From Nemertoderma westbladi (taxonomy: Eukaryota > Animalia > Xenacoelomorpha): DNA of 64,000 nucleotides. Location of the stretch: NCBI GenBank assembly GCA_032718475.1, contig JAUCBJ010000648.1, positions 124,001 through 188,000 on the forward strand, written 5' to 3'. The position numbers and the translations under genes were made by a program. Position 1 is the first letter of the stretch, and each line of letters starts with the position of its first letter. The notes under the pieces were generated by a model. It made no database searches, was not told where the DNA came from, and worked only from the letters and a program-made list of their open reading frames with translations. Shown here in pieces: positions 3,001 through 36,211 of this stretch.

Positions 3001-5857
3001 AAGGGATTCATTTAAACCTAGATTGTATTGAATCCCGTTAATCAAGGGATTCATTTAAACCTAGGTTGTATTGAATCCTGTTAATCAAGGGATTCATTTA
3101 AACCTAGGTTGTATTGAATCCCGTTAATCAAGGGATTCACTTAAACCTAGATTGTATTGAATCCCGTTAATCAAGGGATTCATTTAAACCTAGGTTGTAT
3201 TGAATCCCGTTAATCAAGGGATTATTTTAAACATAGGTTGTATTGAATGCCGTTAATCAAGGGATTCATTTAAACCTAGATTGTATTGAATCCTGTTAAT
3301 CAAGGGATTCATTTAAACCTAGGTTGTATTGAATCCAATTAATCAAGGGATTCATTTAAACCTAGATTGTATTGAATCCCGTTAATCAAGGGATTCATTT
3401 AAACCTAGGTTGTATTGAATCCCGTTAATCAAGGGATTCACTTAAACCTAGATTGTATTGAATCCCGTTAATCAAGGGATTCATTTAAACCTAGGTTGTA
3501 TTGAATCCCGTTAATCAAGGGATTATTTTAAACCTAGGTTGTATTGAATCCCGTTAATCAAGGGATTCATTTAAACCTAGATTGTATTGAATCCTGTTAA
3601 TCAAGGGATTCATTTAAACCTAGGTTGTATTGAATCCAATTAATCAAGGGATTCATTTAAACCTAGGTTGTATTGAATCCTGTTAATCAAGGGATTCATT
3701 TAAACCTAGGTTGTATTGAATCCCGTTAAAAGGGATTCATTTAAACCTAGGTTGTATTGAATCCCGTTAATCGAGGGATTCATTTAAACCTAGGTTGTAT
3801 TGAATCCCGTTAATCAAGGGATTTATTTAAACCTAGGTTGTATTGAATCCCGTTAATCAAGGGATTATTTTAAACCTAGGTTGTATTGAATCCTGTTAAT
3901 CAAGGGATTCATTTAAACCTAGGTTGTATTGAATCCCGTTAAAAGGGATTCATTTAAACCTAGATTGTATTGAATCCCGTTAATCAAGGGATTATTTTAA
4001 ACCTAGGTTGTATTGAATCCCGTTAATCAAGGGATTCATTTAAACCTAGATTGTATTGAATCCTGTTAATCAAGGGATTCATTTAAACCTAGGTTGTATT
4101 GAATCCCGTTAATCGAGGGATTCATTTAAACCTAGGTTGTATTGAATCCAATTAATCAAGGGATTCATTTAAACCTAGGTTGTATTGAATCCCGTTTATC
4201 AAGGGATTCATTTAAACCTAGGTTGTATTGAATCCCGTTAATCAAGAGATTCATTTAAACCTAGGTTGTATTGAATCCTGTTAATCAAGGGATTCATTTA
4301 AACCTAGGTTGTATTGAATCCCGTTAATCAAGGGATTATTTTAAACCTAGGTTGTATTGAATCCCGTTAATCAAGGGATTCATTTAAACCTAGATTGTAT
4401 TGAATCCTGTTAATCAAGGGATTCATTTAAACCTAGGTTGTATTGAATCCCGTTAATCGAGGGATTCATTTAAACCTAGGTTGTATTGAATCCCGTTAAT
4501 CAAGAGATTCATTTAAACCTAGGTTGTATTGAATCCCGTTAATCAAGGGATTCATTTAAACCTAGGTTGTATTGAATCCCGTTAATCAAGAGATTCATTT
4601 AAACATAGATTGTATTGAATCCCGTTAATCAAGGGATTCATTTAAACCTAGGTTGTATTGAATCCCGTTAATCAAGGGATTCATTTAAACCTAGATTGTA
4701 TTGAATCCCGTTAATCAAGAGATTCATTTAAACCTAGATTGTATTGAATCCCGTTAATCAAGGGATTCATTTAAACCTAGGTTGTATTGAATCCCGTTAA
4801 TCAAGAGATTCATTTAAACCTAGATTGTATTGAATCCCGTTAATCAAGGGATTCATTTAAACCTAGGTTGTATTGAATCCCGTTAATCAAGGGATTTATT
4901 TAAACCTAGGTTGTATTGAATCCAATTAATCAAGGGATTCATTTAAACCCAGGTTGTATTGAATCCCGTTAATCAAGGGATTCATTTAAACCTAGGTTGT
5001 ATTGAATCCCGTTAATCAAGAGATTCATTTAAACCTAGATTGTATTGAATCCCGTTAATCAAGAGATTCATTTAAACCTAGGTTGTATTGAATCCCGTTA
5101 ATCAAGGGATTCATTTAACCCTAGGTTGTATTGAATCTCGTTAATCAAGGGATTCATTTAAACCTAGGTTGTATTGAATCCCGTTAATCAAGGGATTCAT
5201 TTAAACCTAGGTTGTATTGAATCCTCGTTAATCAAGGGATTCATTTAAACCTAGGTTGTATTGAATCCCGTTAATCAAGGGATTCATTTAAACCTAGGTT
5301 GTATTGAATCCCGTTAATCAAGGGATTCATTTAAACCTAGGTTGTATTGAATCCCGTTAATCAAGGGATTCATTTAAACCTAGGTTGTATTGAATCCCGT
5401 TAATCAAGGGATTCATTTAAACCTAGGTTGTATTGAATCCCGTTAATCAAGGGATTTATTTAAACCTAGGTTGTATTGAATCCCGTTAATCAAGGGATTC
5501 ATTTAAACCTAGGTTGTATTGAATCCCGTTAATCAAGGGATTCATTTAAACCTAGGTTGTATTGAATCCCGTTAATCAATTTAAACCTAGGTTGTATTGA
5601 ATCCCGTTAATCAAGGGATTCATTTAAACCTAGGTTGTATTGAATCCCGTTAATCAAGGGATTTATTTAAACCTAGGTTGTATTGAATCCCGTTAATCAA
5701 GGGATTCATTTAAACCTAGATTGTATTGAATCCCGTTAATCAAGGGATTCATTTAAACCTAGGTTGTATTGAATCCCGTTAATCAAGGGATTCATTTAAA
5801 CCTAGGTTGTATTGAATCGCGTTAATCAAGGGATTCATTTAAACCTAGGTTTAAATG
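1..5857. repeat. 43-bp satellite array (CATTTAAACCTAGGTTGTATTGAATCCCGTTAATCAAGGGATT), about 135 copies, runs off the window start
   Basis: Unit recurs every 43 nt (1, 44, ...). Each unit holds the palindrome AACCTAGGTT and the TGAATCCC/GGGATTCA inverted repeat. Confidence 0.98.
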
Positions 5858-5937
5858 GTTTACTCAAAAAAGCATAAAAAATTAGCAAAGCACATACTTT
5901 CTGCACCAATTAATTTACTCACTGACCAAATAACATA

Positions 5938-6211
5938 CAATAGTGAATGACTCCTGTTCTACTAACAGTGATGGAGGGTAATATTTATAATAGTTTATTG
6001 TTACTTACACTGAACTATTAACTCAATAGTGAATGACTCCTGTTCTACTAACAGTGATGGAGGGTAATATTTACAGTAGTTTATTGTTACTAACACTGAA
6101 CTATTAACTCAATAGTGAATGACTCCTGTTCTACTAACAGTGATGGAGGGTAATATTTACAGTAGTTTATTGTTACTTACACTGAACTATTAACTCAATA
6201 GTGAATGACTC
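5938..6211. repeat. 86-bp tandem triplication spanning the Ig exon 3' end and its splice donor
   Basis: CAATAGTGAATGACTCC recurs at 5938, 6024, 6110 and 6196. Confidence 0.95.
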
Positions 6212-6792
6212 CGTAATAGTTGATGAATCATAAAACGTATATTCGGCTTTAGTTGTGTAAATCCCTGAAGATCTTTTATTTATATCGATATTCCTAACTT
6301 CATCTCCACCGGTTACGAAGTCGCCACTCCAATTATAATCAACACCTATATTGCATCCATCTCCAACTGGAATCCACTTTACCTCTATTGGGTCGTTATG
6401 AACTTCCAAACTTCTATTTAATTGTATTGAATCACCTCCATCATAAGAAGTACCAGAAACTTTCAGTTCCAGATCACAATATTCTACAGTTACCGGTATC
6501 TCTGGACTTTCCATTTTCCCTTCCCCACCGTTGTTGCTGTACTGACCAGTAAACTCGCACTTATAATCACCTCCATCGTCGGCTCGTAAAGGGTCTAGTG
6601 TAAATGTTGATGAAGATGGTTCAGTAACTATAGCTGCCTCGCCAGTAACATCTTTAGTACCATCAACATACCAGGACCAACTTGGGTTTGATTTCACATT
6701 GTAATCGTCTGCCGAACATTTTAATTCCAATGTTTCGCCTTTTTTCTTTGTAATCGGAACGTTGGGGTTAATGTTTATCCTAGTCGGCAAAT
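6181..6792 (-). CDS. Internal coding exon of an immunoglobulin-superfamily protein (one canonical and one atypical Ig-like domain)
   Basis: 612-nt open exon with a minus-strand acceptor (TGTTACAG, AG at 6794-6793) and donor (GTAAGT at 6180), phase 1 at both ends. Ig motifs: LELKC, WSWYVDG, DGGDYKC. The second domain has YNWSG and SSGIYTT. Confidence 0.88.
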
Positions 6793-7067
6793 CTGTAACA
6801 ATAATATTAATTTAATATAACTTAGATGTAAAACTTTCAGATAAATATTAATGTAAAATTAATTGTCATATAATATTGTAATAGCGAGTTTTATAAACGC
6901 GAATTATTTGCCACTGTGTTTTGGTTACTTATCTGAATAAAAATTACACTGTAGTCGAAGTGGTTAAAGTAAGTTAATATAGATCAGAGGTTTCGTTTAA
7001 TAATCGAACTTTAAGCAAATCTAAGTAATACTGTAGATACAAAATAATATAAATGGTGGATGTATGG

Positions 7068-8087: not shown

Positions 8088-9294
8088 TGTTCGCGCTTTT
8101 AAGACCTTTGGCAGTTTAACCCGCCAAATCTATATGTCTTCTAGGTTATAAATCTACTCCAGCCTATGACAAGTATTGAACACCTATAATAATTCTAACA
8201 TTAGCCAAAGCCAGTCTGTGCGCGACCATTCACCCGCTGGATATACCCGGGAGACTGGATTTGGATGCTTTAATTTGATTGCGGTGCAGGCCTACCGTAC
8301 TATTCGATTGATCGTTAATATATAATCTCTGACGAATATTATTCACTTTCGGGAAATATTAGCAGTTCCTTTAGGACGTGGCGCTCTATCTATTTAAACA
8401 GAGCTATGACTTACACTATACACAACAGTATGTCTTATAGATCACCAAAGTGCATTCTTTAGGAAATGCTTTGTTACTCGGTCAAGCACACACAGACTAT
8501 TGCACACAACTGCACACGGAATTGCCGACATTCACTGATTTTAATCATATATAAAGAGAATAACAACCGACATTTGTAGGGCCTATTAAGTAGCATTGAA
8601 CTCACTACAAACCACGATAATGTATGTCGCAAATTGTTATATGTAACCGGTCTCTCTAACCTTAGTGTATCAAGAAGTTTGGGTTTTCGGATCGTTATCA
8701 ATATTCTTCCCAATAATAATATGTAAACGAACGATACAATTAACAACACAGTAAATAGCAGTAAATAATGCGGCGAAAAGCAGTTTACGTCAGGGTGCTT
8801 AATCAGATGCCGAGATAACAGTTTGATGATCTTATAATTAAAGACGCTCTAATGTCAGAAAACATTCCCCGGCCGGTGTTCTAGGCGTGGGGGAAACGTC
8901 AGTACTGAATCCTGTAATTCTGCTGTACAGCTTTTACACAAAGAGGGAATCTCTGATTGGTCGAATGGCAAAAAGCTCCACGTGGATACAGCTGATAGAT
9001 GTCGTCATTTTGAGCTGAGCAGAACAAAGAACCAAGGCAAGGCTCCGGGCAAGCTACACGTGTAAAGCTCAGCCGTTAGCTGTCGTCATAGTAACAACAC
9101 TGTTTCAAGAGGATCTAGGGCGTTGCGTCATAGAATTGCTAATCATGTCCTCCAAAGTACACATACAGAAGAAATAACTTTTATGTCCCCTAAAAACACC
9201 GGTACAGCAATGACACGGCCTTTTATGCCTGCTAAACAAACTACAGAGTACTTTACGGGGAAAATAACTGGGCAATTCCGCAAAAGCTTTTACA
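8088..9294 (-). repeat. 3' LTR of the BEL element (1207 bp)
   Basis: TGTTCGCG...TTTTACA, a direct repeat of 18219-19420 differing by a handful of substitutions and one 5-bp indel. Confidence 0.96.
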
Positions 9295-9302
9295 CCGCTC
9301 CC
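9295..9302 (-). promoter_or_regulatory. Polypurine tract (plus-strand primer) of the BEL element
   Basis: Minus strand reads GGGAGCGG directly before the TGTAAAAG start of the 3' LTR. Confidence 0.6.
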
Positions 9303-12296
9303 AGAAAATGGGATTTTAGTCTATAAAATATAAAAATCACAGTTTCTAAAATATAAAGATACTCTAAACAGTTAGTTTTTCTTGCGCGGACGGCGTTTAT
9401 GCAGTTTCTTGAGACTAGCAAGAGTCCTTTTCTCTTTGGGGCGAGCCACTTTACTAGGAGGGCTATAACTCCTGGGTGAAGGGTGCAATACCATTGCATC
9501 AGAAGGTTTAGGATTACGGTCAGTGTCTCGTCCATTTCGATCTGCTTCTCCTCGAGCTGATTTTCCTCCGCTTGTCGTTGGACACGCTCGTCCAAAACTC
9601 TCGCAGAGAATAGGGTTGTCTAAGCTCGATATCTTCTTAGAGATTCAAGATTTCCCAATCGAACTGAGATAAGCCAATTCGTTTACCGCTTGGACTTGCT
9701 GTTATAACTTACGTTTATCTGAACAAACGCAGGTTTCCTTTCTGATCTTTGTAGAATAGCGTTTAACTCGTTTCGTACAACGCTCTCCTTCACCTTGATG
9801 AAGGGTTGTATCGCGTTAAACTGGGACGACCATACGGTTGAATGGTGATATTAGGTGTCCGCGTCCCAATACGGCTAGGTAAGATGGGCGGCTAGCTAGA
9901 GCTCGCTGCCGGAGTGTTACCGATTAATTGTTAGGGTAGCACTAGATCTTTGAACAGTGAATACAGCTCGTGAGGATCCGGGATACCATCAGAATCGAAA
10001 GTCTGAGGTCTAATCAAGGAACGAGGTGGTCTGACCGAGTATTCCGGAACTATGATCGTAGGTTTACTCAAGGATCGTCTGAGTCGAGCGAGCGTAGGTG
10101 ATATGTCGAACAAGTTTTGGATGTTTATGTCTTTCCGTTTATTAGTTGGGTCTAGGGCATTTATCGTAATAATACCAAAGACGCACGTCTGGTAGGGGAA
10201 ACGCGGATGATATTTATTTGTTGTTACAATGCTTCTATCAAGAATTCCAAATATACGTTAGAGTTACCGCGTCCATTTGTCTCTCTAATGTCTTTTCTTT
10301 CGAGTCGATTTCGAATAGAATTTTCGCATTCGAATTTCAGTTTATCGTTCCGACTCCGCTGGGTAGGATATATGTTCGACATAGTCCGTATCGTGTGAAT
10401 CGATAGAATGGCCAATGGTTAAGAAGTCCATATACGTACTATTACAATGCGTGTAGCGAGCGGTGAATTTTCCATAGTCCAATTCACGCGTAAGTTGCTT
10501 CGAGGAAATCGTCGGTTCGATATAACGACCATCGTCCTCCGTAGTAGTTGGACTAGCGTCGCCGCGTATCAAACTATCAACAAACACTTGTAAAGGTAGA
10601 GTATATCGCTCCCTGATACCAAGACCATCTTCTATCAACTCCGTTATATCTGCTATATATGAGTTTATTAATATTATAATGAGCTTATATTAGGCTAGCG
10701 AGCGTCGCTGCCTACCCCAATCAGCCCCCGGACAGTGTACGATCCTCAGCGCAAATGTATCGTCGTCGCTGTGTTTTCCGCCAACGTGTAGCTACACAAC
10801 GACAACGACACTAGCACGAGTCACTCCACTGTCCGTCCCAAAGGCTTAGATACACTTCAGGTTCTTACTGGAGAGTTAGGGTTACTTTCACAATTGCGAC
10901 TCGCTACTGTAAACACACCTTAGTAGTAACATTCGCCTATAAACTCACAAATTCCACACACACAACTGTCACAAATTACACATACTCGGGCCATTTGTCC
11001 GTTAGTCAGTGCCTTCCAGAATGCCACGTTATTATTATGTATCCTTGGATACTAGCAATGCGCTATTTATTTCTTACTATGCAATGGGGCAAGCTTTCTA
11101 TTGTTCTTTTTAACTTGCTTCTAATTCTAGCGTGGGTGTTACTATGGTGACATTATGGAAAGCTAGCGGTAGAATTAGGGTAATTCCAATGCATACAGAT
11201 CTGGGATGCTATTTAATAGTAATTCTTTAATGGTCCAATATCTCGTTTATACATGATTTTATAAATTTTATCGGCTATTGACTCATACATGGGATATTCT
11301 CAAACTCTAACACACTTAATAGGATGAATCTCCGCTCCCGTGATCTATTAATTAATGGGATTTTGGGAATGTTATAAATTGCACAGAATGACAATTTATC
11401 AAATTCATTAAAATATGAATTTAAATTTATTCCCTGAAATTTTATTATTTGATAGTACAATTGACACAATTTGATTCCAGAGCAGGTCTGGGGACATAGG
11501 ATCCTCAATTCTATGAAAATTGTCTTTTAAGAGTATCGGTAAGTGCTACGATATCTTAATCGACTAGAATTGTTAAAGGATCTGAATTTTACAGATTTTG
11601 ATTTATAGATTTGTAAATATTAAATAATTAATATTTGAGATGGGCACCAATTTATTCCAGAACTTGTCTGGGGACGTTAACCACTAATTCTAGAATTTGT
11701 CTTTCAAGTATATCGGTGGGTGCCGCGATATCTTAATCGACTAGAATTACAGATGGTCAAAAGGTTTAACAGATTTATTTGCATTTCACGCTACTGTTAG
11801 AGGGACATCACGCTACTATATGTATTATTATATATGGTATGAGAGCAATATCGCACGAAGCAATGTCAGTGTGAAGAGGCAAGTCGTTTTCAAGGTCTAC
11901 CCAGAGCTTGGTTTAGCCGAGACACGAGGATCTGAACTTTGCATTCCTAATACTCTGCCTACCAATAATACTTGAATGTAGTAGTGGCTTTATTGTACTT
12001 TAATAAGTACGGACATTTCATCTTACTGTAGTCACGTATTTATAATATGATACGGACAGTAAGGAAAGAGAAAAAATAATTATTTCTCGCCGTCGCACTA
12101 AATATATATTATAAGTAATTACGTACGTAATAAACACTAATATATTGCACTAATCTACTAAATAATCACTAAAATAACATTCTACTAAATAAAATTAAAG
12201 AAAACGATTATAATAAAATTACATAATAATACATACATAAATATAAAATAAAAACAGATATAAAATGATATAGTCACACGCCCACTCCATATGTTA

Positions 12297-14555
12297 TTAC
12301 GTTATGGAGTCCCTAGATATTTGTCGGATTAGGGAAGTGGTCGTAGGAAGAGTATCTTGCCTTCCATAGTTTCCGGACAGTTTTCGGTCTCTTTCCAGTA
12401 AACATAAACGACCAGCTTGGCGATTGAGTTGTTGTGTTACTTTCTCCGCTCCCTTGGCCTGTCTAATCTCCGCCGTGGTAAGATGAGGAGGCCATTCTTC
12501 TTCTTCTTTACTTAAGAAGTCGGATCCACCTAACCAGCCTGGAGTATCTATCAGTTCTTGAGGAGTTGCTCCTCTGGAGGCAATGTCGGCTGGATTAATC
12601 GTCCCAAGGCAATGTCTCCATTGATCTATAGTGGAGTTGATATCGTCATTATCTGAGGAGTATGGTGTTCCCTCAGTTGGGTCGTCCACCTCACTGCTCT
12701 CCACTTCCCATTCCTTTACTTGGTATACCTGTTCTTGAGGTAATCTCTCTTTGAGAGTTCTACGGGAAGGGCCAGTGAAGTACCAACCTACTCTAGTTCT
12801 TACCGCATAGGTTTGTAGTGGCTGTGGTTGAGCAGGCCGTTTCTCCAATGTCTCTAGCGCCTCATGCGCGTTTTGGCCGATGAGTATTTGCACTCCAGGA
12901 TAATCTGTGTGGAATCGAGGTATCTTAAGCTGTTGGATGCTCTCGTCCTCGTCCCAGTTATAAGGTTCTAACTGGGTAGTAGCGAAGTTCTTTATAGCCA
13001 CCATTTTTACTGACCTTATATTTTGTTCTCCTAATTTATCCTGGGGGGTGGACAACGCACCTACATAGTAATCTGCCATTATGGTAGATTTCCAAACCTG
13101 CATAATTCCTGACATATTCAACTTAGTTCGGAATTTGGGTTGTCCAGCAAAGATGTCTTCGGCTAGTTCTTGATCGATGAATGTTCCTGTGCTGCCGGAG
13201 TCAAGGAGGGCGTTCACTATGTAACTTTTGTTAGGACCGTGAACTCTTACCTGCACTACCGGAAATTCTCTGATTCCTACGTTGCAAGTTGGAGGTTTCC
13301 AAGATGGTTGTCTGTCAAAGGTAATTGGGGGGAACTCATTGTCGGTGTCCTTTTCATACGTAAGTGCTCGATACACTGCGGTATTTATTAGGTAACAGGA
13401 TTCGTTGGCGTCGGAGAATTCGTCCGTATAGAATCCTTCCATCTCAGATTCTTGATCAGTGTCATTTTCATCACTGAATTGGACATGTAGTTCGGGCTCA
13501 CTTACCTGACTCGGGTTGTTTCGTTCGAATTCACTGTGTAACAAGATGTGATGTTTCGCACCGCACTTTGCACACCTTACGTCGGAGTAACAGGTTCGCC
13601 GTTGGTGTCCTTGTCTGAGGCACTTATAGCATAACCGCTTATCCCACATGACTTCACGTCTGTCTACCAGGGATTTCTTTAGGAATTCAGCACACACACT
13701 CAAACGGTGGGGCCCGTCGCACAGCGCACATTTTGGTTTGATGTTACTCACTTTACCTTGGGTAACGTTATGCACTCTCGTTCTTTCTTCGGGCTTTCTT
13801 CCGTGAATTCTCTTATGAGACGTAGGAGGAGTTGTTGTTACCTGTTCTCTTCTGTCATTGGTTCGAGCCTTATATTTACTTACGTCCTTTGAGGTTTTGT
13901 TAACATAGTAAAATCTGTCAGTGTCTTTCCCGCTGTCCTCTTCTTGAGAAGCTTGGCTTTCGCCGTTGTCAGTATAACACACTGGTGTTACCCTTCTCCT
14001 AGAAACGGGTTTCTCACTTACCTTATTTTCCGATGTTTTCTCTCTGGACTGCTTTATGAGTTGTAATTTTACTTCACCATCTAAGAAGGACATGAGATCA
14101 GCCATGGTAGGGCCTCGTCGTTGCTGCTCATTCATATACAACACTTTCTTGTCCCAGCGTGTAGATACTCCACCCTTTGGTAAAGTAGAGACTATGGCTC
14201 CAATAACCATGGAACTCTGATATTCATGAGACTTACCTAACCAATCCAATTGTCTGCAGATCTCCTGAATCTCATCGGAAAACTCTATAATCCCGCTACT
14301 AAGGAACTTTCGGGGGGCTACTAATTTTTCATACAAATACTTAGCTATGTTATCCTTGTTACCATACCTAATGTTTAATGTATCCCAAACTTGTCTTAAT
14401 CCATCTGGATGTCCAATAAACTTTAACGCCATTAACTTGGGAGGTCCTTCCAAGCACTTGATGAGGAATCTAAGTTTCTCTCCGTTAGATAGTACAGAGT
14501 TCTGTATGCTATCTTTGAGCAGTATAGATGCGTGTAGGCTCCACACCTTGCGCAT
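12297..14555 (-). pseudogene. BEL/Pao gag-protease ORF fused in frame to the RNase H C-terminus
   Basis: LSNGEKLRFLIKCLEG (BEL gag core); CALCDGPHRLSVC, CYKCLRQGHQRRTC, CAKCGAKHHILLH; ALLDSGSTGTFI; QWRHCLGTINPADIASRG...WLGGSDFL. No YxDD RT motif and no integrase motifs seen. Confidence 0.9.
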
Positions 14556-16224
14556 GTAATACTTCAGACCTAACAGGTTGACACACAGTTACAGGGGGTA
14601 TTGGTATACCCTTTTGTATATTGACTAATTTGTCGCGTTCTAGCGCGATACTTTGCTGCACTTCTTGCAATTCTAGCGCGATACTTTGCTGCACTTCTTG
14701 CAATTCTAACCTACTTTCCCTTACTGTTCCCTTGAGTTGGTGGACAGTCCCTTCTAAATCTCGGATCTGCTGTGAGGAACATTCTCGGTGCTCTCTCAGC
14801 TGCCCGAGCAAGAGACCCATCTCCCGCCGTCCCTCATCAACCCGCTCGACCGCCGAAGCGGGAGTCGCCAACGTAGTAGCGGGCCGACGTGGGATGACGG
14901 GAGACAAATCTTGGATTTCTCTCTCGGCATCAAGAACCGGGACATTCTCTGGGACTGCTCCACCGGGTGCAAACAGTTTCGTACTGTGTAAAGGGAATTT
15001 GGTTGTAGGTTCGTGGAGTACAGGGGCCTCCCTCACCGAAGGGGTGTTTTCGAGAACAGGCTTAACTATTTCAGGCTCATCTACTATCGTAGGGAGTCTT
15101 TTGACCTTAATAATTTGGTCTGTGGGTTCTGTACTACCTAAGTCTGTGCTAGCTAGTTGTCTTCTAACAGCTGGGGGCAAATCAGGCAATTTGTGATGGT
15201 GAGACGGTTTTCTACGCCTGCTTAGACGAGATCTATTTCCTCCGCCTTCAGGATCGGTGGTCTCGCCTTCCTCCGATGATGTGTATTCTTGGCGCTTGGG
15301 AGTAGATCGACTCATCATCTGCATTTGACTAGCAGTTAACTGTTTATTTATGCAGTCTTGCGTCTCTTGAAGATTTTCCAACTCCAGTTGGGTGGTCTCT
15401 TCAGACGCTCTCTGTTCTGCTTCTGCCAATGCCATTGCTGCTGCTGCTTTTGCTGCTTCCACTGCTGCTGCCGCTTTTGCCGCTTCCACTGCCGCTGCCG
15501 CTTTTGCCGCTTCCACTGCCGCTGCCGCTTTTGCCGCTGCTACTGCCTTTCTGTCCTCTATACGTTTTTTCTTTACTTGTTCTTCTTGGACTCTAGCGAG
15601 GCGGAGTTTTTCATCAAATTTAGCTTGGTTCGCAGCTAACATTTCCGCATCAATTGCGTCCAACACAAGCTTGGTTCCTTCACTATTAGGGCGAAGTCCA
15701 GACAGTCGTCTCCTCAACTCTTCGTCTCCTAGGAATCGCTGATAGTCTGACAGATAAATATCAATAGCGTCTCTCTTTCGCGGCCCCCCCGCTGTCACTT
15801 CGCTTTCTTCTTGAGAAGAAGTGGCGTCGGTTGATTCTTCAAAGGTTGGCCACTCATCATAAACCGTATCCGCCATCTTCGCTCCGCGTTCGGGCGTCCG
15901 CTCAGCAGTATCCGAACTACTGGAGCTATCGGGCCGCTGAGAACTAGGTTCTTGGCTAGGATGTTGCTGCTGTTTGACAGCTGCTTCTTGATCCCGCTTG
16001 ACTTAGGCCCGAGTGCCGATGATAGACCTACGTTGTTCCACTAGCCTAGGGTCTGACTCTACTACTGTAGGGATGGCCCTTTTTACAATAGTAGGTGACT
16101 TAGACTTGGATCTAGGATGTTCTATACTTGGATCTGGGTCACTGATCTTTTTAAGGCACTGTCTAACAGTCATTCTAACACTTTCTAAGAGACTATCCGA
16201 CAGTGATTGGGTTGTGTCTGACAT
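14509..16224 (-). pseudogene. N-terminal low-complexity/coiled-coil part of BEL gag, interrupted by one in-frame TAA (16003-16005) and a frame change near 14510-14580
   Basis: ORFs 16003-16224 and 14509-15876 share a frame and the sequence between them is open. Contains AAAAVEAAK repeats and a duplicated LELQEVQQSIA. Confidence 0.75.
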
Positions 16225-17410
16225 GTTTGTTTACTGAGTACCGGTATATAATTTTAGCACAAATATATATAAATATATAATAGGCCTATCGTGAATACCG
16301 GTATACAGCTGACACTTATAGTATATATAAGTATAATTATTACAGACTAGAATTAATTACAGAATACCGGTATGATTTCAGCCTAAATTTATAGAATAAA
16401 TTTAATAAGCTTATTGTAAATACCGGTATGTCAATTATTTTAAAATAATTGAATTTCTGAATGTTAGGGGTTACTTGGTTACTTTACTTACTTTATTACC
16501 GTTATTTGAGCAGCAGTCCAACTGATATTAAGACCTAAGTGTTGTATAACAGGCCTACTATTTTATTAATAGATTTAGTGGATTTATATATACCCGTATG
16601 AGGGGTTTTGTTACAATATTGAAATAGATGTTATTATTTCTGGGAATTAATCACTACACAAAAGCTGTGCGCTCTCAGTGAAGTGCTACTTATTGGACAC
16701 TAAAACAGATAATTCTACTTCCTAAGTTACTTATCTACGAATTACTTACGATATGGGTGAGATTAATTCTCTAACTAAACACAACAAAATATTACGTACG
16801 AAATTTTAGGGTAATTTTACAGGGAACTACAAACCAGTCTAACAGAGTATTAGATTTTCTGGTTATTACAACGGACAGGATACTACGGTATTTGAAAATA
16901 ATAAGTAGTAGTAAATACACTGTGTTGTCCAGATAGGAAAATACCACCGTCTGACGACCTATAGCCGTATCGCTATAGGTACTACGTTATGTATCACGGA
17001 GTGTCCCTACCTAGAAGTTAATTACCGCGGTCTACCAGAACCAACGTGCCTATTAACCACTTTACAACACAAATATACTGCCTACACACTAATTACCTTC
17101 GGAAAGCACTGTACACTAAACCCTAAATTAGGTACAAGTACTGGTACAACAAATAATCAGTAGTTAAAAATACTTGAACAGCTAAAAGAACCACGGCATC
17201 TGCTGGAGTGACCGGTGCACAAAATCACCAGTCTTTACCTACGCCAAGCAGCCCGTATAGTACCGGGTTAATTTAACTATAACGGTATATATAACAAGCA
17301 CAATTACTGTAGGAATAAACTTAGGGATATGAATGTTGCGAATAATCGCATAAACTCTGAATAATAAATATTACGCTACCCGTACAGAATACTCAAACAA
17401 AATACAAACC

Positions 17411-17930
17411 AAACGCTGGCAGACTACCATCAAGCCTAAATAAACTACAGTATGTGCAGATTCCAAAATGGTTAGTTAGTATGCATTCTAACACGGTAGT
17501 ACGACTTATTCTTTAGGAGGGGGTTGACCTTACAACTCAAGATGCCCCAACTTACTAACTGGCACTTTATCGGACAGACTCTACACACGCAGCAATCTCT
17601 TCAGACCTAATAACAGCTAGACAACAATCCAGCCTACAAAATATCTGAGTAATAACTATTACGGTACCTGAACAGACCACACAAACAAACACAGGCTAAA
17701 ACGCTGGCAGACTACTATCCAGCCTAAATAAACTACAGTATATGCAGATTCCGAAATGGTTAGTTAGTATGCGTTCTAACACGGTAGTACGACTTATTCT
17801 TTAGGAGGGGGTTGACCTTACAGCTCTGGCTGCCCCTACTTCCTAACTGGCACTTTATCGGACAGACTCTACATGCACTGCAATCCGTTCAGACCTAACA
17901 ACAGTCAGAACAACAGTCCAGCCTACAAAT
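17411..17930. repeat. About 230-bp direct duplication in the BEL 5' leader
   Basis: AAACGCTGGCAGACTA...CCAGCCTACAAA occurs at ~17411 and ~17699. Confidence 0.9.
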
Positions 17931-18198
17931 TATCTGTACAATCTGAGCAGGGTTACACGCCTTCTGCTCAATATTATCCTACTAGTAAATAAAACTGACA
18001 GAAATAGACCTAAGTAAAATCCCAATAAAAACCAGGCGTCCCCGATTTAATATCGAGACCTACCGGTATATAATTATCAAAATCGAATAATACTGCTGTA
18101 CCTGTACTGCTGTAAGTACCGGTCCGGATGATCAGGCAGTCAGGCCTACAGATTACCGGTCGACCGGTACTTTAGTCTTGATCGCTTACACCGCAATC

Positions 18199-18218
18199 AA
18201 GATCCTACAAACTGTTAT
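18199..18218 (-). promoter_or_regulatory. Non-canonical primer-binding site, complementary to an LTR-internal sequence (candidate self-priming site)
   Basis: Sense sequence after the LTR end is ATAACAGTTTGTAGGATCTT with no TGG. The LTR sense strand contains AAGATCATCAAACTGTTAT (8815-8833) or AAGATCACTGTTAT (18946-18959). Confidence 0.6.
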
Positions 18219-19420
18219 TGTTCGCGCTTTTAAGACCTTTGGCAGTTTAACCCGCCAAATCTATATGTCTTCTAGGTTATAAATCTACTCCAGCCTATGA
18301 CATGTATTGAACACCTATAATAATTCTAACATTAGCCAAAGCCAGTCTGTGCGCGACCATTCACCCGCTGGATATACCCGGGAGACTGGATTTGGATGCT
18401 TTAATTTGATTGCGGTGCAGGCCTACCATACTATTCGATTGATCGTTAATATATAATCTCTGACGAATATTATTCACTTTCGGGAAATATTAGCAGTTCC
18501 TTTAGGACGTGGCGCTCTATCTATTTAAACAGAGCTATGACTTACACTATACACAACAGTATGTCTTATAGATCACCAAAGTGCATTCTTTAGGAAATGC
18601 TTTGTTACTCGGTCAAGCACACACAGACTATTGCACACAACTGCACACGGAATTGCCGACATTCACTGATTTTAATCATATATAAAGAGAATAACAACCG
18701 ACATTTGTAGGGCCTATTAAGTAGCATTGAACTCACTACAAACCACGATAATGTATGTCGCAAATTGTTATATGTAACCGGTCTCTCTAACCTTAGTGTA
18801 TCAAGAAGTTTGGGTTTTCGGATCGTTATCAATATTCTTCCCAATAATAATATGTAAACGAACGATACAATTAACAACACAGTAAATAGCAGTAAATAAT
18901 GCGGCGAAAAGCAGTTTACGTCAGGGTGCTTAATCAGATGCCGAGATAACAGTGATCTTATAATTAAAGACGCTCTAATGTCAGAAAACATTCCCCGGCC
19001 GGTGTTCTAGGCGTGGGGGAAACATCAGTACTGAATCCTGTAATTCTGCTGTACAGCTTTTACACAAAGAGGGAATCTCTGATTGGTCGAATGGCAAAAA
19101 GCTCCACACGGATACAGCTGATAGATGTCGTCATTTTGAGCTGAGCAGAACAAAGAACCAAGGCAAGGCTCCGGGCAAGCTACACGTGTAAAGCTCAGCC
19201 GTTAGCTGTCGTCATAGTAACAACACTGTTTCAAGAGGATCTAGGGCGTTGCGTCATAGAATTGCTAATCATGTCCTCCAAAGTACACATACAGAAGAAA
19301 TAACTTTTATGTCCCCTAAAAACACCGGTACAGCAATGACACGGCCTTTTATGCCTGCTAAACCAACTACAGAGTACTTTACGGGGAAAATAACCGGGCA
19401 ATTCCGCAAAAGCTTTTACA
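18219..19420 (-). repeat. 5' LTR of the BEL element (1202 bp)
   Basis: Direct repeat of 8088-9294. CCAAT box on the sense strand near 19080. Confidence 0.96.
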
Positions 19421-19640
19421 CCCGTCTTCCCTCCAAGTTAAGGTTGTGTACATGTGGTTCCATTCAAACTGAAATACATATTGGGTGTGAGTGCCAGTTG
19501 GTAGAGCCATTGCATGGAGAAAGTATGGCAAAGTGAAACGTTTCATTTACATTAATAGATGGATTATTTTAGGACATACAAATAATGATATCTGCCACTT
19601 TCAGGGCAAATTACGTTACGTATCACAATACGTAAATTAT
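19421..19640 (+). mobile_element. Decayed 3' end of a LINE ORF2 (C-terminal Cys/His motif)
   Basis: Reads RLPSKLRLCTCGSIQTEIHIGCEC, resembling the RLC-x-C...E-x-H...C tail of non-LTR ORF2 proteins. Confidence 0.5.
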
Positions 19641-20019: not shown

Positions 20020-20680
20020 CCAGACATTGATTCCTACACCCGAAGAATTATTTGCCCAGGTAGAAGGAAGCTTGTTCTTTTCAAAATTAGATGCCTATCC
20101 CTATTACTCCCCCATGCTTACTACTTTTGTGTTTCCCATTGGATCTTATCGCTATATTTGGTTGCCCTTTGGTGTGTCATGTGCTTCATAAATTCATCAT
20201 CAGAAGATTATAGCTGAGGTTGTAAGTAATATTGAGGGAGCAGTCGTCTTAGAATATGATATAATTGGCTTTCATTAAAAAAGGAATGGATAATGTAACT
20301 TGAATAAAGTTTCAATTAAATACCTTAATTCACCATCGAACCTGCACCTGCCACGACCAAATCTTGGCTCAAGTGCAACAGTATTGTGCTGAATCTTCTA
20401 TTAAATTGAATTTGACAAAATGTGTGTGTACTGTAAAACTGAAATTACATATCTTGGGCATGTTTTATCATCCCTAGGTATGAAAGCAGACCCGGCGAAA
20501 GTTTCAGCAACTTCATCACTAGCTATTCCTTGTGTCTGAATGTCTCTGAATGCCGTCGATTTTTAGGAATGGCTAACATATTTAAGTTTGTTCATCCATT
20601 CTGTGTTTTCTTGGACTACAGCTTGCGATTCCGCTTTTATGAAAATTAAATCGATGCTTTGTCAATCACCCTTGATAAAA
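20020..20680 (+). pseudogene. Decayed Ty3/Gypsy reverse transcriptase fragment
   Basis: Hand-translated pieces: PEELFAQVEGSLFFSKLDA, LTTFVFPIGSYRYIWLPFGVSCAS, TEITYLGHVLSSLGMKADPAKVSA, RRFLGMAN, WTTACDSAFMKIKSML. Many frameshifts. Confidence 0.88.
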
Positions 20681-20930: not shown

Positions 20931-20932
20931 TG

Positions 20933-23900
20933 AGATCTGTTTGCGCTCTGTTGCTGGGACCGCCGGGACTGTGTGTGGCTGACCGCGAGATCTGTGTGTG
21001 CTCTGTTGCTGGGACCGTCGGGACTGTGTGTGGCTAACCGCGAGATCTGTGTGTGCTCTGTTGCTGGGACCGTCGGGACTGTGTGTGGCTAACCGCGAGA
21101 TCTGTGTGTGCTCTGTTGCTGGGACCGTCGGGACTGTGTGTGGCTAACCGCGAGATCTGTGTGTGCTCTGTTGCTGGGACCGTCGGGACTGTGTGTGGCT
21201 AACCGCGAGATCTGTGTGTGCTCTGTTGCTGGGACCGTCGGGACTGTGTGTGGCTAACCGCGAGATCTGTGTGTGCTCTGTTGCTGGGACCGTCGGGACT
21301 GTGTGTGGCTAACCGCGAGATCTGTGTGTGCTCTGTTGCTGGGACCGTCGGGACTGTGTGTGGCTAACCGCGAGATCTGTGTGTGCTCTGTTGCTGGGAC
21401 CGTCGGGACTGTGTGTGGCTAACCGCGAGATCTGTGTGTGCTCTGTTGCTGGGACCGTCGGGACTGTGTGTGGCTAACCGCGAGATCTGTGTGTGCTCTG
21501 TTGCTGGGACCCCCGGGACTGTGTGTGGCTGACCGCGAGATCTGTGTGCGCTCTGTTGCTGGGACCGCCGGGACTGTGATGGGCTGACCGCGAGATCTGT
21601 GTGCGCACTGTTGCTGGGACCACCGGGACTGTGTGAGGCTGACCACGAGATCTGTGTGCGCTCTGTTGCTGGGACCGCCGGGACTGTGTCGGGCTGACCG
21701 CGAGATCTGTGTGCGCACTATTGCTGGGACCGCCGGGACTGTGTGTGGCTGACTGCGAGATCTGTGTGCGCTCTGTTGCGGGGACTGCCGGGACTGTGTG
21801 TGGCTGACCGCGAGATCTGTGTGCGCTCTGTTGCTGGGACCGTCGGGACTGCGTGTGGCAGACAGCGAGATCTGTGTGCGCTCTGTTGCTGGGACCGCCA
21901 GGATGGTGTGTGGCTGACCGCAAGATCTGTGTGCGCTCTGTTGCTGGGATTGCCGGGACTGTGTGTGGCTGACCGCGAGATCTGTGTGCACTCTGTTGGG
22001 GGGACCGCCGGGACTGTGTGTGGCTGACCACGAGATCTGTGTGCGCTCTGTTGCTGGGACCACCAGGACTGTGTGTGGCTGACCGCGAGATCTGTGTGCG
22101 CTCTGTTGCTGGGACCATTGGGACTGTGTGTGGCTGACCCCGGGATCTGTGTGCGCTCTGTTTCTGGGACCGCCGGGACTGTGTGTGGTTGACCGCGAGA
22201 TCTGTGTGTGCTCTGTTGCTGGGACCACCAGGACTGTGTGTGGCTGACCACGAGATCTGTGTGCGTTCTGTTGCTGGGACCGCCAGGACTGTGTGTGTCT
22301 GACCCCGGGATCTGTGTGCGCTCTGTGGCTGGGACCGCCGGGATTGTGTGTGGCTGACCGCGAGATCTGTGTGCGCTCTGTTGCTGGGACCGCCGGGACT
22401 GTGTGTGGCTGACCGCGAGATCTGTGTGCGCTCTGTGGCTGGGACTGCCGGGTCTGTGTGTGGCTGACCACGAGATCTGTGTGCGCTCTGTTGCTGGGAC
22501 CGCCGGGACTGTGTGTGTCTGACCGCGAGATCTGTGTGCGTTCTGTTGCTGGGTCCGCCGGGACTGTGTGTGGCTGACCACGAGATCTGTGTGCGCTCTG
22601 TTGCTGGGACCGTTGGGACTGTGTGTGGCTGACCCCGAGATCTGTGTGCGCTCTGTTTCTGGGACCGCCGGGACTGTGTGTGGTTGACCGCGAGATCTGT
22701 GTGCGCTTTGTTGCTGGGAACGCTGGGACTGTGTGTGGTTGACCGCGAGATCTGTGTGCGCTCTGTTGCTGGGACCGCCGGGACTGTGTGTGGCTGACTG
22801 CGAGATCTGTGTGCGCTCTGTTGCTGGGACCGCCGGGACTGTGTGTGGCTGACCGCGAGATCTGTGTGCGCTCTGTTGCTGGGACCCCCAGGACTGTGTG
22901 TGGCATACAGCGAGATCTGTGTGCGCTCTGTTGCTGGGACCGCCGGGACTATGACGGGCTGACCGCGAGATCTGTGTGCGTTCTGTTGCTGGGACCGCCG
23001 GGACTGTGTGTGGCTGACCGCGAGATCTGTGTGCGCTCTGTTGCTGGGACCGCCGTGACTGTGTGTGGCTGACCGCGAGATCTGTGTGCACTCTCGGTCT
23101 GTTGCTGGGACCGTCGGGACTGTGTGTGGCTGACCGCAAGATCTGTGTGTGCTCTGTTGCTGGGACCGCCGGGACTGTGTGTGGCTGACCGCGAGATCTG
23201 TGTGCACTCTCGGTCTGTTGCTGGGACCGTCGGGACTGTGTGTGGCTAACCGCGAGATCTGTGTGTGCTCTGTTGCTGGGTCCGTCGGGACTGTGTGTGG
23301 CTAACCGCGAGATCTGTGTGTGCTCTGTTGCTGGGACCGTCGGGACTGTGTGTGGCTAACCGCGAGATCTGTGTGTGCTCTGTTGCTGGGACCGTCGGGA
23401 CTGTGTGTGGCTAACCGCGAGATCTGTGTGTGCTCTGTTGCTGGGACCGTCGGGACTGTGTGTGGCTAACCGCGAGATCTGTGTGTGCTCTGTTGCTGGG
23501 ACCGTCGGGACTGTGTGTGGCTAACCGCGAGATCTGTGTGTGCTCTGTTGCTGGGACCGTCGGGACTGTGTGTGGCTAACCGCGAGATCTGTGTGTGCTC
23601 TGTTGCTGGGACCCCCGGGACTGTGTGTGGCTGACCGCGAGATCTGTGTGCGCTCTGTTGCTGGGACCGCCGGGACTGTGTCGGGCTGACCGCGAGATCT
23701 GTGTGCGCACTGTTGCTGGGACCGCCGGGACTGTGTGAGGCTGACCACGAGATCTGTGTGCGCTCTGTTGCTGGGACCGCCGGGACTGTGTCGGGCTGAC
23801 CGCGAGATCTATGTGCGCACTATTGCTGGGACCGCCGGGACTGTGTGTGGCTGACTGCGAGATCTGTGTGCGCTCTGTTGCGGGGACCGCCGGGACTGTG

Positions 23901-26390
23901 TGTGGCTGACCGCGAGATCTGTGTGCGCTCTGTTGCTGGGACCGTCGGGACTGCGTGTGGCAGACAGCGAGATCTGTGTGCGCTCTGTTGCTGGGACCGC
24001 CAGGATGGTGTGTGGCTGACCGCAAAATCTGTGTGCGCTCTGTTGCTGGGATTGCCGGGACTGTGTGTGGCTGACCGCGAGATCTGTGTGCACTCTGTTG
24101 GGGGGACCGCCGGGACTGTGTGCGGCTGACCACGAGATCTGTGTGCGCTCTGTTGCTGGGACCACCAGGACTGTGTGTGGCTGACCGCGAGATCTGTGTG
24201 CGCTCTGTTGCTGGGACCGTTGGGACTGTGTGTGGCTGACCCCGGGATCTGTGTGCGCTCTGTTTCTGGGACCGCCGGGACTGTGTGCGGTTGACCGCGA
24301 GATCTGTGTGTGCTCTGTTGCTGGGACCACCAGGACTGTGTGTGGCTGACCACGAGATCTGTGTGCGTTCTGTTGCTGGGACCGCCAGGACTGTGTGTGG
24401 CTGACCCCGGGATCTGTGTGCGCTCTGTGGCTGGGACCGCCGGGATTGTGTGTGGCTGACCGCGAGATCTGTGTGCGCTCTGTGGCTGCGACTGCCGGGT
24501 CTGTGTGTGGCTGACCACGAGATCTGTGTGCGCTCTGTTGCTGGGACCGCCGGGACTGTGTGTGTCTGACCACGAGATCCGTGTGCGTTCTGTTGCTGGG
24601 ACTGCCAGGACTGTGTGTGGCTGACCCCGGGATCTGTGTGCGCTCTGTGGCTGGGACCGCCGGGATTGTGTGTGGCTGACCCCGGGATCTGTGTGTGCTC
24701 TGTTGCTGGGACCACCAGGACTGTGTGTGGCTGACCACGAGATCTGTGTGCGTTCTGTTGCTGGGACCGCCAGGACTGTGTGTGGCTGACCCCGGGATCT
24801 GTGTGCGCTCTGTGGCTGGGACCGCCGGGATTGTGTGTGGCTGACCGCGAGATCTGTGTGCGTTCTGTTGCTGGGACCGCCAGGACTGTGTGTGGCTGAC
24901 CCCGGGATCTGTGTGTGCTCTGTTGCTGGGACCACCAGGACTGTGTGTGGCTGACCACGAGATCTGTGTGCGTTCTGTTGCTGGGACCGCCGGGTCTGTG
25001 TGTGGCTGACCGCGAGATCTGTGTGTGCTCTGTTGCTGGGACCGCCGGGACTGTGTGTGGCTGACCGCAAGATCTGTGTGCGCTCTGTGGCTGGGACTGC
25101 CGGGTCTGTGTGTGGCTGACCACGAGATCTGTGTGCGCTCCGTTGCTGGGACCGCCGGGACTGTGTGTGTCTGACCGCGAGATCTGTGTGCGTTCTGTTG
25201 CTGGGTCCGCCGGGACTGTGTGTGGCTGACCACGAGATCTGTGTGCGCTCTGTTGCTGGGACCGTTGGGACTGTGTGTGGCTGACCCCGAGATCTGTGTG
25301 CGCTCTGTTTCTGGGACCGCCGAGACTGTGTGTGGTTGACCGCGAGATCTGTGTGCGCTTTGTTGCTGGGAACGCTGGGACTGTGTGTGGTTGACCGCGA
25401 GATCTGTGTGCGCTCTGTTGCTGGGACCGCCGGGACTGTGTGTGGCTGACTGCGAGATCTGTGTGCGCTCTGTTGCTGGGACCGCCGGGACTGTGTGTGG
25501 CTGACCGCGAGATCTGTGTGCGCTCTGTTGCTGGGACCCCCAGGACTGTGTGTGGCATACAGCGAGATCTGTGTGCGCTCTGTTGCTGGGACCGCCGGGA
25601 CTATGACGGTCTGACCGCGAGATCTGTGTGCGTTCTGTTGCTGGGACCGCCGGGACTGTGTGTGGCTGACCGCGAGATCTGTGTGCGCTCTGTTGCTGGG
25701 ACCGCCGTGACTGTGTGTAGCTGACCGCGAGATCTGTGTGCACTCTCGGTCTGTTGAGGGACCGTCGGGACTGTGTGTGGCTGACCGCGAGATCTGTGTG
25801 TGCTCTGTTGCTGGGACCGCCGGGACTGTGTGTGGCTGACCGCGAGATCTGTGTGCACTCTCGGTCTGTTGCTGGGACCGTCGGGACTGTGTGTGGCTGA
25901 CCGCGAGATCTGTGTGCACTCTCGGTCTGTTGCTGGGACCGTCGGGACTGTGTGTGGCTGACCGCGAGAGCTGTGTGCGCTCTGTTGCTGGGACCGCCGG
26001 GACTGTGTGTGGCTGACCGCGAGATCTGTGTGCACTCTCGGTCTGTTGCTGGGACCGTCGGGACTGTGTGTGGCTGACCGCGAGATCTGTGTGTGCTCTG
26101 TTGCTGGGACCGCCAGGACTGTGTGTGGCTGACCACGAGATCTGTGTGCGCTCTGTTGCTGGGACCGCCGGGACTGTGTGTGTCTGACAGCGAGATCTGT
26201 GTGTGTTCTGTTGCTGGGACCGCCGGGACTGTGTGTGGCTGACCGCGAGATCTGTGTGCGCTCTGTTGCTGGGACCGTCGCGACTGTGTGTGGCTGACCG
26301 CGAGATCTGTGCGCGCTTTGTTGCTGGGACCGCCGGGACTGTGTGTGGCTGACCACGAGATCTGTGTGCGCTCGGGACCGTCGGGACAGC
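20933..26390. repeat. GC-rich 55-bp minisatellite (GAGATCTGTGTGCGCTCTGTTGCTGGGACCGCCGGGACTGTGTGTGGCTGACCGC), about 99 copies, with a higher-order duplication
   Basis: 55-nt period. Runs of variant units recur at offsets 2102 and 2652. Confidence 0.97.
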
Positions 26391-26964
26391 AGCACCCGGC
26401 ACCTTAGTTTAAGCCGATTATCATCAAAGCTTATATAATATTATCATAATTTCTTACTATTGTCATTCGTGTTACTTCTAGAGAAATTGTTGTTGTACAT
26501 TTCTTGGTTCACAATTACAATGAGGTAACAATCCGAGTGGAGGGGCTGCAACGAAAATTTGACGATTTGAAGAGATTGTTATTGGCACATTTGAATTTTT
26601 GCCGACTTTCGCATAAATCCTAGTATTTCTGCAGTAGTGGCCCAAACACCGTCGTCAGTCATTCGTGGCGAGCGCGAGGAACTAGGTTTTCACATTTTCA
26701 CCCTTGAATCTTTCCAACCCATGGCAGATATATCCAGAGTCATATGGGCTACTATAAAATCTCTAACCTTCATATGTTGCTTCTCAGTGCCAGTTAAAAC
26801 AAAAGAAATGGCACGAAAAAGCCCATCGCCATGGCCCATGGCCATCGCCAATATTTTGATGAAATTTGCTCGGAGTATTCAGAACAGGTCTTTTGTTAAA
26901 ATATTGAGTTTTAATATAGACTAATCCTAAACAAATGAACAAATGTGTTTTCGAGCCGCAGCAG

Positions 26965-27483
26965 CCATTTGGAAGTCACCGAGAATTAATCGGAAACTTA
27001 AGGTCCGATTATTTAGAGCAGCAGTAGTTCCAGTAGTCCTCTATGGGAGTCCATGCTGGGCTCTAACTGCTGAGGACACCAAATCTCTGGATGGCACATT
27101 CACAAGAATGCTACGCCGGGTTCATTGTGTCAAGTACAATGCACACATCTCCAACCAGACACTATATAACATTGGAGGTGTCTCATTGGTTCTCCCAAGT
27201 TTGACACTAGAACAAAATCGCCTCCGCTGTGCAGGTCATTGCTTTCGTCGTGAGGACCAGCCAGTCCATAATCTTGTACTTTGGCAGCCTCATGGAGTGA
27301 ATAAGCATGGTGGACAGCCCATGACTTTCTTGAGACGCATCTTAAAGGACACTGGCCTTGAAGATGCGGATGATCTAGCAAATGTCATGGGTGATAGGGA
27401 GTTGTAGCGGCGCAATTTTGTCGACAAGCCGGCACAGCATTCTTAAAAATGCAGCTGCAAGGCAGCATGCCGATCCTAGTAGT
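26965..27483 (+). mobile_element. 5'-truncated RTE-like LINE with a 29-bp TSD
   Basis: Near-identical to the 3' half of 37110-38138, with a short TAG tail. TGAACAAATGTGTTTTCGAGCCGCAGCAG at 26936-26964 and 27484-27512. Confidence 0.92.
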
Positions 27484-28472: not shown

Positions 28473-28988
28473 AAAGGTTCCACACATTATATTAACAATT
28501 TTAAGACGTGTCAAAAAGGTTCCACACATTATATTAACAATTTTAAGACGTGTCAAAAAGGTTCCACACATTATATTAACAATTTTAAGACGTGTCAAAA
28601 AGGTTCCACACATTATATTAACAATTTTAAGACGTGTCAAAAAGGTTCCACACATTATATTAACAATTTTAAGACGTGTCAAAAAGGTTCCACACATTAT
28701 ATTAACAATTTTAAGACGTGTCAAAAAGGTTCCACACATTATATTAACAATTTTAAGACGTGTCAAAAAGGTTCCACACATTATATTAACAATTTTAAGA
28801 CGTGTCAAAAAGGTTCCACACATTATATTAACAATTTTAAGACGTGTCAAAAAGGTTCCACACATTATATTAACAATTTTAAGACGTGTCAAAAAGGTTC
28901 CACACATTATATTAACAATTTTAAGACGTGTCAAAAAGGTTCCACACATTATATTAACAATTTTAAGACGTGTCAAAAAGGTTCCACA
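28473..28988. repeat. 42-bp perfect tandem repeat, about 12 copies
   Basis: Unit AAAGGTTCCACACATTATATTAACAATTTTAAGACGTGTCAA. Confidence 0.97.
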
Positions 28989-35055: not shown

Positions 35056-36211
35056 TATTAGTTATGCATATAGTAAAGCATAAAAATATCACAATGATAC
35101 TCGGAAATAATAAATGGTGTTCTAGAATCAAATTTACTAAGATATATGGGTATTTAGTTGAGTTTGTAAAATTTCCAAATTTCGTTATTTCAATAATTTG
35201 CATTTTTTTTTCTATTTCATCTAAAGCAGATTTTATCAAGATTTCAAATTTTAAAATCGTTAAGCAAGATATGATATATGGCTGTCTGTCCGTTTGACTG
35301 TCGGTTTGTGCGTCAGTATGTCTAGCTGTTCGTTAATAAAAAGCATATCTGTGTAAAAATATTCCCTATATGGGTTTCTGTGGTCGGTGACTTCGTTTCT
35401 GTCTGTATACCTGTCAGTCTGTTCGACAAATTAACCGAAAACATGACAGCCAAACAAACAGTTTGGAAGTTATCAAATGTTAAATCTGACACTCGAAATG
35501 AATTCTGCGACCAGGAAACCCCTAAGCCATATAGCTAAACCTTTAGCTATATGGTGTGCGCTTTTCTTATATTTGACGAACAGAATGTCGGATAGTCAGT
35601 AAGACCGACAGACAGACATATCGACAAAATAGATTTCATTGAAAGTGTAAACTGACCTCAGAAATGAAATTAGCGACCAGGAAAACTCCCATAGCAAAAA
35701 TCTTAACATAGATTTTTGCTTTATTGTTGCTAGATATTGATTGACAGACAGTTATTGCGCGGGAAGGTACAAACTTTAAAGGCTGAAAGAAAACAGATGA
35801 AAAAAAACTTTAAAGGTCTTTTCCGAGATAATTATCTCGGAATGGAAATTGTTCATTCAATTATCGATTGACCCATTACCATTGATTTTCATTGACTGTG
35901 TTAAAGAAGCGCTCCCCCCCCCCCCCCCCCCCCCCTTAATGATATTTTTAATATGCTGTTAAATAAGCTCAATGAAGCGGTACTTTACATAACTCTATGA
36001 CATGGTTTTAGTATAACTTAATTTATTATTATTTATTGTAAACTTCAGACAGTAGTGCTGTACAGTATATATCCGTAGTTACTTACCGTTTCAGTTTCTT
36101 TTTTGGGATTACAATACCCATATTGATAGGATTTCCACTGTTTCGCCCTGCGCATAAAGTTTTTATATTTTCTAACATGGCGATTGTATAGTTATGATTA
36201 TAAATATTAAT

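Follow-up and report, generated by a model that had tools for sequence, protein, structure and literature searches.

In this work we present a computational analysis of a single long terminal repeat (LTR) retrotransposon of the BEL/Pao superfamily, located on the minus strand of a 64-kb stretch of Nemertoderma westbladi DNA (contig JAUCBJ010000648.1, positions 124,001 to 188,000; this whole stretch of 64,000 nucleotides is called the window, and positions are counted from its first letter). The element is probably a recently inserted, non-autonomous copy whose primer-binding site (PBS) has its complement in the copy's own LTR, and the family likely starts minus-strand DNA synthesis with its own RNA, in the manner of the yeast element Tf1. 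We consider the self-priming signature to be real, and likely functional at the level of the family. An earlier note on this DNA, referred to as the original prediction, had proposed such self-priming, and the proposal is now supported by two predicted flanking helices, by an intact 11-mer in the common form of the family and by complements with different letters in distant BEL elements. The features on which the argument depends are the following.

18219..19420, minus strand: 5' LTR, 1202 bp, TGT...ACA.
8088..9294, minus strand: 3' LTR, 1207 bp, TGT...ACA.
18208..18218, minus strand: PBS position, 11 nt adjoining the LTR end, without TGG, its first five bases the same as the start of the Tf1 PBS.
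8815..8825, minus strand: candidate self-primer of the 3' LTR (LTR positions 470-480), intact over all 11 nt that are complementary to the PBS.
18946..18953, minus strand: candidate self-primer in the 5' LTR, 8 nt left, with a 5-bp gap at its upstream edge.
18954..18959 (8828-8833 in the 3' LTR), minus strand: 6-nt segment upstream of the primer, complementary to leader positions 18199-18204.

The leader starts ATAACAGTTTG at 18218, and its first 20 bases contain no TGG, as had been claimed, so that no PBS complementary to a tRNA 3' end was found there. The LTR end at 18219 was matched independently, by a contig of another copy whose match starts at this position. An LTR end placed six bases further, which would give a PBS start like that of relatives, was ruled out, since the same last base is found in the 3' LTR and in one independent contig. 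The complementarity of the PBS to the 3' LTR is seen directly in the sequence: it is exact over the 11 nt originally described, it sits at offset 0, and its polarity is the one expected if the 3' base of a primer were to pair with the base that directly follows the unique 5' region (U5). Dinucleotide shuffling of the 3' LTR produced such a match in 13 of 20,000 cases at offset 0 and in 46 of 20,000 at offsets 0-5. The earlier chance estimate of about 3e-4 was about twofold low. By itself the 8-nt match of the 5' LTR is unremarkable (776 of 20,000 shuffles). The 6-bp extension of the pairing, also part of the original prediction, is present. Control positions showed a Watson-Crick 6-mer behind a loop no larger than 3x3 in 5 of 1158 cases, but the extension brings no significant gain in energy (p=0.19). 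Near LTR position 705 lies a second partial PBS site, which was rejected, as its energy was at chance level (311 of 1000 shuffles).

When every internal position was scanned as a mock PBS, the longest LTR match, 12 nt in length, fell at 18200, immediately past the PBS region. It forms the first of two predicted helices that flank the PBS.

18406..18417, minus strand: predicted U5 arm of the U5-leader helix, pair probability about 0.9-1.0, found in 1 of 3,000 shuffles.
18189..18200, minus strand: predicted leader arm of the same helix, directly 3' of the PBS region.
18351..18359, minus strand: predicted U5 arm pairing at 8 of 9 positions with the last 9 LTR bases (18219-18227).

The unaltered 5' LTR RNA was folded from three start points, which gave the 12-bp U5-leader helix a probability of ~0.99, and the stem of this helix is predicted to close a domain containing the PBS. 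According to the predicted fold of the free RNA, the U5 end forms a hairpin over the 3' half of the PBS, with the first six PBS bases exposed in a 13-nt loop. The helix between U5 and the LTR end was matched in 24 of 5,000 shuffles within the nested region and in 83 of 2,000 anywhere downstream of the primer. The minimum-energy fold for a blocked PBS contains both flanking helices, and the six inner pairs of the U5-LTR-end helix then form with a probability of 0.6-0.8. The Tf1 pretzel, as the accessible text of PMC10085805 defines it, consists of the primer-PBS duplex and two duplexes between PBS-adjacent sequence and the LTR downstream of the primer. The two helices predicted here, together with the primer-PBS duplex, would make up the same three-duplex structure.

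The start site, the cleavage and the priming are steps that we infer, and they could proceed as follows. Transcription would start at or slightly upstream of LTR position 470, and the 5' part of the transcript would nucleate on the exposed start of the PBS. Once the PBS is occupied, the LTR end would pair with the second U5 arm and so complete the pretzel of three duplexes. An autonomous partner would provide the RNase H that cuts after the paired bases, and reverse transcriptase (RT) would extend the new 3' end, copying ~730 nt. In the Tf1 model, as far as it is given in the accessible part of PMC7175516, the primer is cut off before copying, and progeny would for this reason inherit their primer bases from the 3' LTR, in which the motif is intact.

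For the transcript 5' end the original prediction had relied on a CCAAT box about 130 nt upstream and on an initiator-like TCA. The CCAAT is indeed there, 135 nt upstream of the motif and as the sole copy on the minus strand of the 1.2 kb LTR, but this is about what chance would give, and it carries no weight as an argument. The TCA carries none either, and a rival promoter signal, TATAAG, lies 11 nt upstream of the motif. Moreover, a start at the TCA and the 6-bp extension are mutually exclusive, because the extension lies upstream of the TCA.

18958..18962 (8832-8836 in the 3' LTR), minus strand: TATAA, placed 11 nt upstream of the primer, possibly a competing TATA box or a variant poly(A) signal.

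These signals bear on another explanation, by which the motif would lie in the unique 3' region (U3) or at the end of the repeat region (R). Its pairing would then join the RNA ends or cover the PBS, and another source would supply the primer. The joining of two RNA ends is known from Ty1 cyclisation. The TATAAG/ATTATA just upstream of the motif would fit a TATA box or a variant poly(A) signal, the sequence after the motif is T-rich, and it is the 3' LTR that carries the better match. On the other hand, the match starts exactly at the first post-LTR base, has the polarity of priming and is bracketed by two Tf1-type helices, and a motif in U3 or R leaves no other candidate primer. We regard this explanation as unlikely.

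The LTR was found in five DNA runs of one species label, with no RNA run listed among its holders, and four runs (3 samples) were compared. In run X1, 27 of 50 contigs are at least 99% alike over 8760-8900. Among the family contigs of the four runs no substitution or indel is listed at a 2% share within 8815-8825, and the common form of the family has the intact 11-mer. The LTRs of the window copy differ by 7 substitutions and by the 5-bp gap in the 5' LTR that the original prediction had reported. This gap is not listed among the family variants at a 2% share and was not seen in other family copies, and it is therefore probably private to the window copy. Among the 40 of 226 rows listed, none falls in 18199-18218. 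In divergent contigs (X2 record 11, X3 record 21, X4 record 25) the match is confined to 8813-8854 or 8813-8862, a block that has the primer at its end. As a lead only, a divergent subfamily seems by eye to change 18408 and its partner 18198 with the pair kept, the two positions not being linked on one molecule. Many family contigs diverge directly downstream of the primer, at 8813-8819, some of them with a short tandem unit expanded.

Distant relatives came from a scan of metagenome contigs, which gave 78 BEL loci, 27 with an LTR repeat and 51 without. Among the 27, the LTR end was fixed by both copies in 9, only the LTR start was known in 12, and neither in 6, which left 21 testable loci and 57 excluded ones; two of the 9 fixed-end loci are one family and three are related. 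The exact LTR-end/PBS pattern of the window element had 0 matches in these contigs. A PBS complement of 11-15 nt was found in 16 of the 21 testable loci, and it is formed only across an LTR intron:

L001, L004, L009, L010, L026, L032, L034 and L035: spliced PBS complement (11-15 nt, GT-AG LTR intron).
L037, L038, L039, L041, L048, L050, L058 and L067: spliced PBS complement (11-15 nt, GT-AG LTR intron).

Eight of the 9 fixed-end loci have 11-15 nt across a GT-AG intron with a GTAAG or GTGAG donor (seven pass the strict splice filter and L048 the relaxed one), and the contiguous complement never exceeds 7 nt in any of the 9. The ninth, L053, is ambiguous, with 10 nt, a poor donor and TGG at offset 1. 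Swapped pairs of fixed-end loci, used as a control, gave at least 11 nt in 0 of 66 cases and 10 nt in 2 of 66. In the start-only loci, for which the LTR end was chosen by the search, 8 of 12 have 11-13 nt, and the same search with foreign leaders reached at least 10 nt in 0 of 126 cases. The letters of the primer differ between distant BEL families, and all 15 distant primers examined, like that of the window element, end in A plus pyrimidine. The distant loci also show an enrichment of a second helix upstream of the primer (Fisher combined p=0.003, 12 loci), and some of the distant elements with self-complements have an intact pol. In L070 (LTR near 158, leader after 461) the 10-nt complement at offset 4 is contiguous and no spliced match was found, and this locus may be a second intron-free case. 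For the window element itself, no GT/GC-AG join gives a splice-made primer that beats the contiguous 11 nt, the best reaching 10 nt. A branch-point-like TACTGAC, a pyrimidine tract and an AG lie upstream of its primer at 8881-8906 (LTR ~389-414 in the 3' LTR; also in the 5' LTR), and donor-like sites lie at LTR 690 and 881; no role was found for them or for the branch-point-like stretch.

A host RNA such as a tRNA half could also act as the primer, the self-match then being due to chance or secondary. Six bases of the candidate primer presumably resemble the tRNA-Asn anticodon loop. The window contains 0 tRNA genes. Half-tRNA priming exists in Ty1/copia lineages according to the part of PMC6317226 available. 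Three separate helices, each unlikely by shuffling, speak against a host primer, as do the self-complements of 16 of the 21 other BEL loci, and we hold it to be slightly less probable than the placement of the motif in U3 or R. Taking the window element and the distant loci together, we lean towards the view that tRNA-independent priming is common in BEL/Pao and exists in two designs: a deep lineage would have converged on the full Tf1 pretzel including the first five PBS bases, and in a second large clade the spliceosome would build the primer from an LTR intron.

The coding content assigns the element to BEL/Pao, as the original prediction had done.

12300..14588, minus strand: BEL/Pao gag (DUF1759), Cys-His knuckles, aspartic protease motif and a short pre-integrase remnant.
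14512..16002, minus strand: upstream gag-region reading frame, of low complexity and without a family match.
9295..9302, minus strand: polypurine tract (PPT) position, a purine-rich tract adjoining the 3' LTR.

DUF1759 scores above the cut-off in frame 14588-12300, and the 15 longer relatives of this frame are BEL/Pao polyproteins of 21-35% identity, all 15 with DUF1759 and PF05380. No close protein relative of the gag-protease frame was found, this identity range being the top one; the protein search with the upstream frame 14512-16002 gave no relative, and neither did the search of viral contigs with the element. Compared with the 15 longer relatives, the protease joins directly to ~50 residues of the pre-integrase stretch, and RT, RNase H and integrase of the BEL element have no match anywhere in the window. 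From its sequence, the element is best read as a non-autonomous BEL/Pao copy in which these three domains were deleted. It could alternatively be a chimera, self-primed as well, in which LTR and leader come from a Tf1/sushi-type Ty3/gypsy element and gag-protease from a BEL element, and in which a gypsy RT does the copying. The pretzel and the first five PBS bases are as in Tf1, as far as the accessible accounts of it go, and the window copy has no RT or integrase by which its replication machinery could be assigned. However, no gypsy-type polyprotein was found, every matched coding remnant is BEL-type, including the pre-integrase stretch, and other BEL elements with an intact pol carry self-complements; of the three alternatives we consider this the least probable. 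Short broken frames at 9375-11526, in the ~3 kb between gag-pro and the 3' LTR, are possibly a decayed extra open reading frame, and four frames of this interval gave no Pfam match.

Trees were built on 470 columns of gag, protease and linker, a quick one with 53 rows and a mixture-model one with 33 rows, from which 20 close sisters had been dropped. In both trees the window protein is a long branch outside the spliced-primer clade (100/98 in the mixture-model tree), placed between this clade and a group with insect and arachnid proteins. The original prediction had gone further and claimed an independent origin of self-priming in BEL/Pao. This is not established: the window copy lacks RT, and the trees cannot tell one origin within BEL from several, because long branches place unreliably and the tree is unrooted.

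A number of points weigh against self-priming as proposed here. The main open risk is that the TATAAG at LTR 459 could shift the transcript start, here put at or near LTR 470, to ~487, past the primer. The 5' LTR of the window copy retains only 8 nt of the complement and is probably a weak primer source; in the unconstrained fold its primer-PBS helix has a probability of 0.00, the program being unable to form crossing helices together. The tests of the flanking helices were post hoc, made after the sequence had been seen, and the third duplex was sought after reading the definition of the Tf1 pretzel. Divergent family contigs differ at 3-6 positions (not itemised), and four contigs start matching at 8816, so that the last base of the primer may vary among them. 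No RT of the window element's family was seen. The distance from the primer to the LTR end is 727 nt in the window element and 104-223 nt, to the intron end, in 8 relatives. The distant loci need splicing for their match, unlike the window element, and their architecture differs, with a leader-U5 helix of at least 8 nt in 0 of 8 (7 nt or shorter). As the window protein falls outside their clade, the spliced-primer loci are an analogy and not close-family covariation.

Regarding the insertion itself, no target-site duplication was found, the five bases on each flank being different. Single-copy contigs in three runs span the 5' flank from 19421 and continue for 441-657 letters not aligned to the LTR. 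This suggests empty sites in two other samples and, if the contigs are read so, a recent and polymorphic insertion. The 5' flank (19421-19600) is purine-rich; the other flank is at 8087. Within the 2 kb leader of the element a 288-bp unit occurs twice, 87% alike, at 17356-17936. Elsewhere in the window there are satellite arrays at 1-6200, 20932-26373, 28473-28988, 36209-38944 and 62865-64000, with periods of ~43/86, 55, 42, 26 and 31 bp. A frame with an immunoglobulin domain at 6176-6811 (minus strand), 1.3 kb from the 3' LTR, is probably a host exon. Other reverse-transcriptase or DUF6451 fragments, at 47051-48937 (minus strand) and at 37098-38081, 20304-20474 and 26931-27404 (plus strand), are unrelated to the BEL element by tblastn.

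If the proposed priming is true, self-priming occurs in each of the three LTR superfamilies, which would share a preference for primers that end in A plus pyrimidine. A BEL element with a complete Tf1-style structure would show the self-priming fold to be independent of chromovirus RT. Such a structure would also explain BEL elements annotated without a PBS, and self-primed BEL elements would be immune to control via the tRNA primer. The intron-dependent version in the other BEL loci would tie priming to host splicing.

Among known systems, Cer7 of Caenorhabditis elegans has a self-encoded tRNA-like primer, for which our literature search found no paper. No report of BEL/Pao self-priming was found in the accessible literature (including PMC3601003 and PMC6934838), though subscription papers, Repbase reports and supplements may hold one, and the accessible main texts of de la Chaux 2011, the Sinbad paper, Thomas-Bulle 2018 and the Lamellibrachia paper gave nothing on BEL priming. 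The profile of Belpaoviridae by the International Committee on Taxonomy of Viruses describes a PBS of 18 nt that is complementary to tRNA-Arg or tRNA-Gly, a host tRNA being the primer as the original prediction had said of BEL/Pao elements, and calls BEL/Pao replication poorly understood (PMC8742986). The window element resembles this family in its DUF1759 gag, Cys-His knuckles, protease, TG...CA LTRs of ~1.2 kb and PPT, but fits it neither in the PBS nor in the priming by host tRNA. Like the metagenome BEL loci (L001-L067), it has a PBS complement in the range of 10-15 nt, A plus pyrimidine at the end of the primer and possibly a second helix upstream of the primer; it differs from them in that their complement is formed only across the LTR intron and their clade excludes it. 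The accessible parts of PMC6317226 and PMC4600332 describe self-priming in Tf1/sushi and predict it in Tcn1 and TAR, the first of these sources asking for an LTR complement of at least 10 bp starting 0-5 bp after the LTR. The 3' LTR of the window element has such a complement, as do the TAR lineage (Houba and Osr-1 of plant Ty1/copia) and the Tcn1 chromoviruses, which belong to other superfamilies and hosts.

The closest likeness is to Tf1/Tf2, Tj1, Tosmo/Tcry and the Tf1/sushi group of Ty3/gypsy chromoviruses, with which the element has in common the 11-nt PBS complement in the LTR. As in the Tf1/sushi pretzel, to judge from the text available in PMC10085805 and PMC7175516, both predicted flanking helices use LTR sequence downstream of the primer, and the PBS begins ATAAC like that of Tf1 (PMC11042837, in its accessible part). 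Unlike Tf1/sushi, the element carries BEL/Pao proteins, is non-autonomous and has an LTR of 1.2 kb in which ~730 nt follow the primer; it possibly has an extra helix upstream of the primer, and its start site and cleavage are putative. The mechanism would thus be Tf1-like although the element is not a Tf1/sushi member, which would place self-priming, by a known Tf1-type mechanism, in a superfamily that is classed as tRNA-primed.
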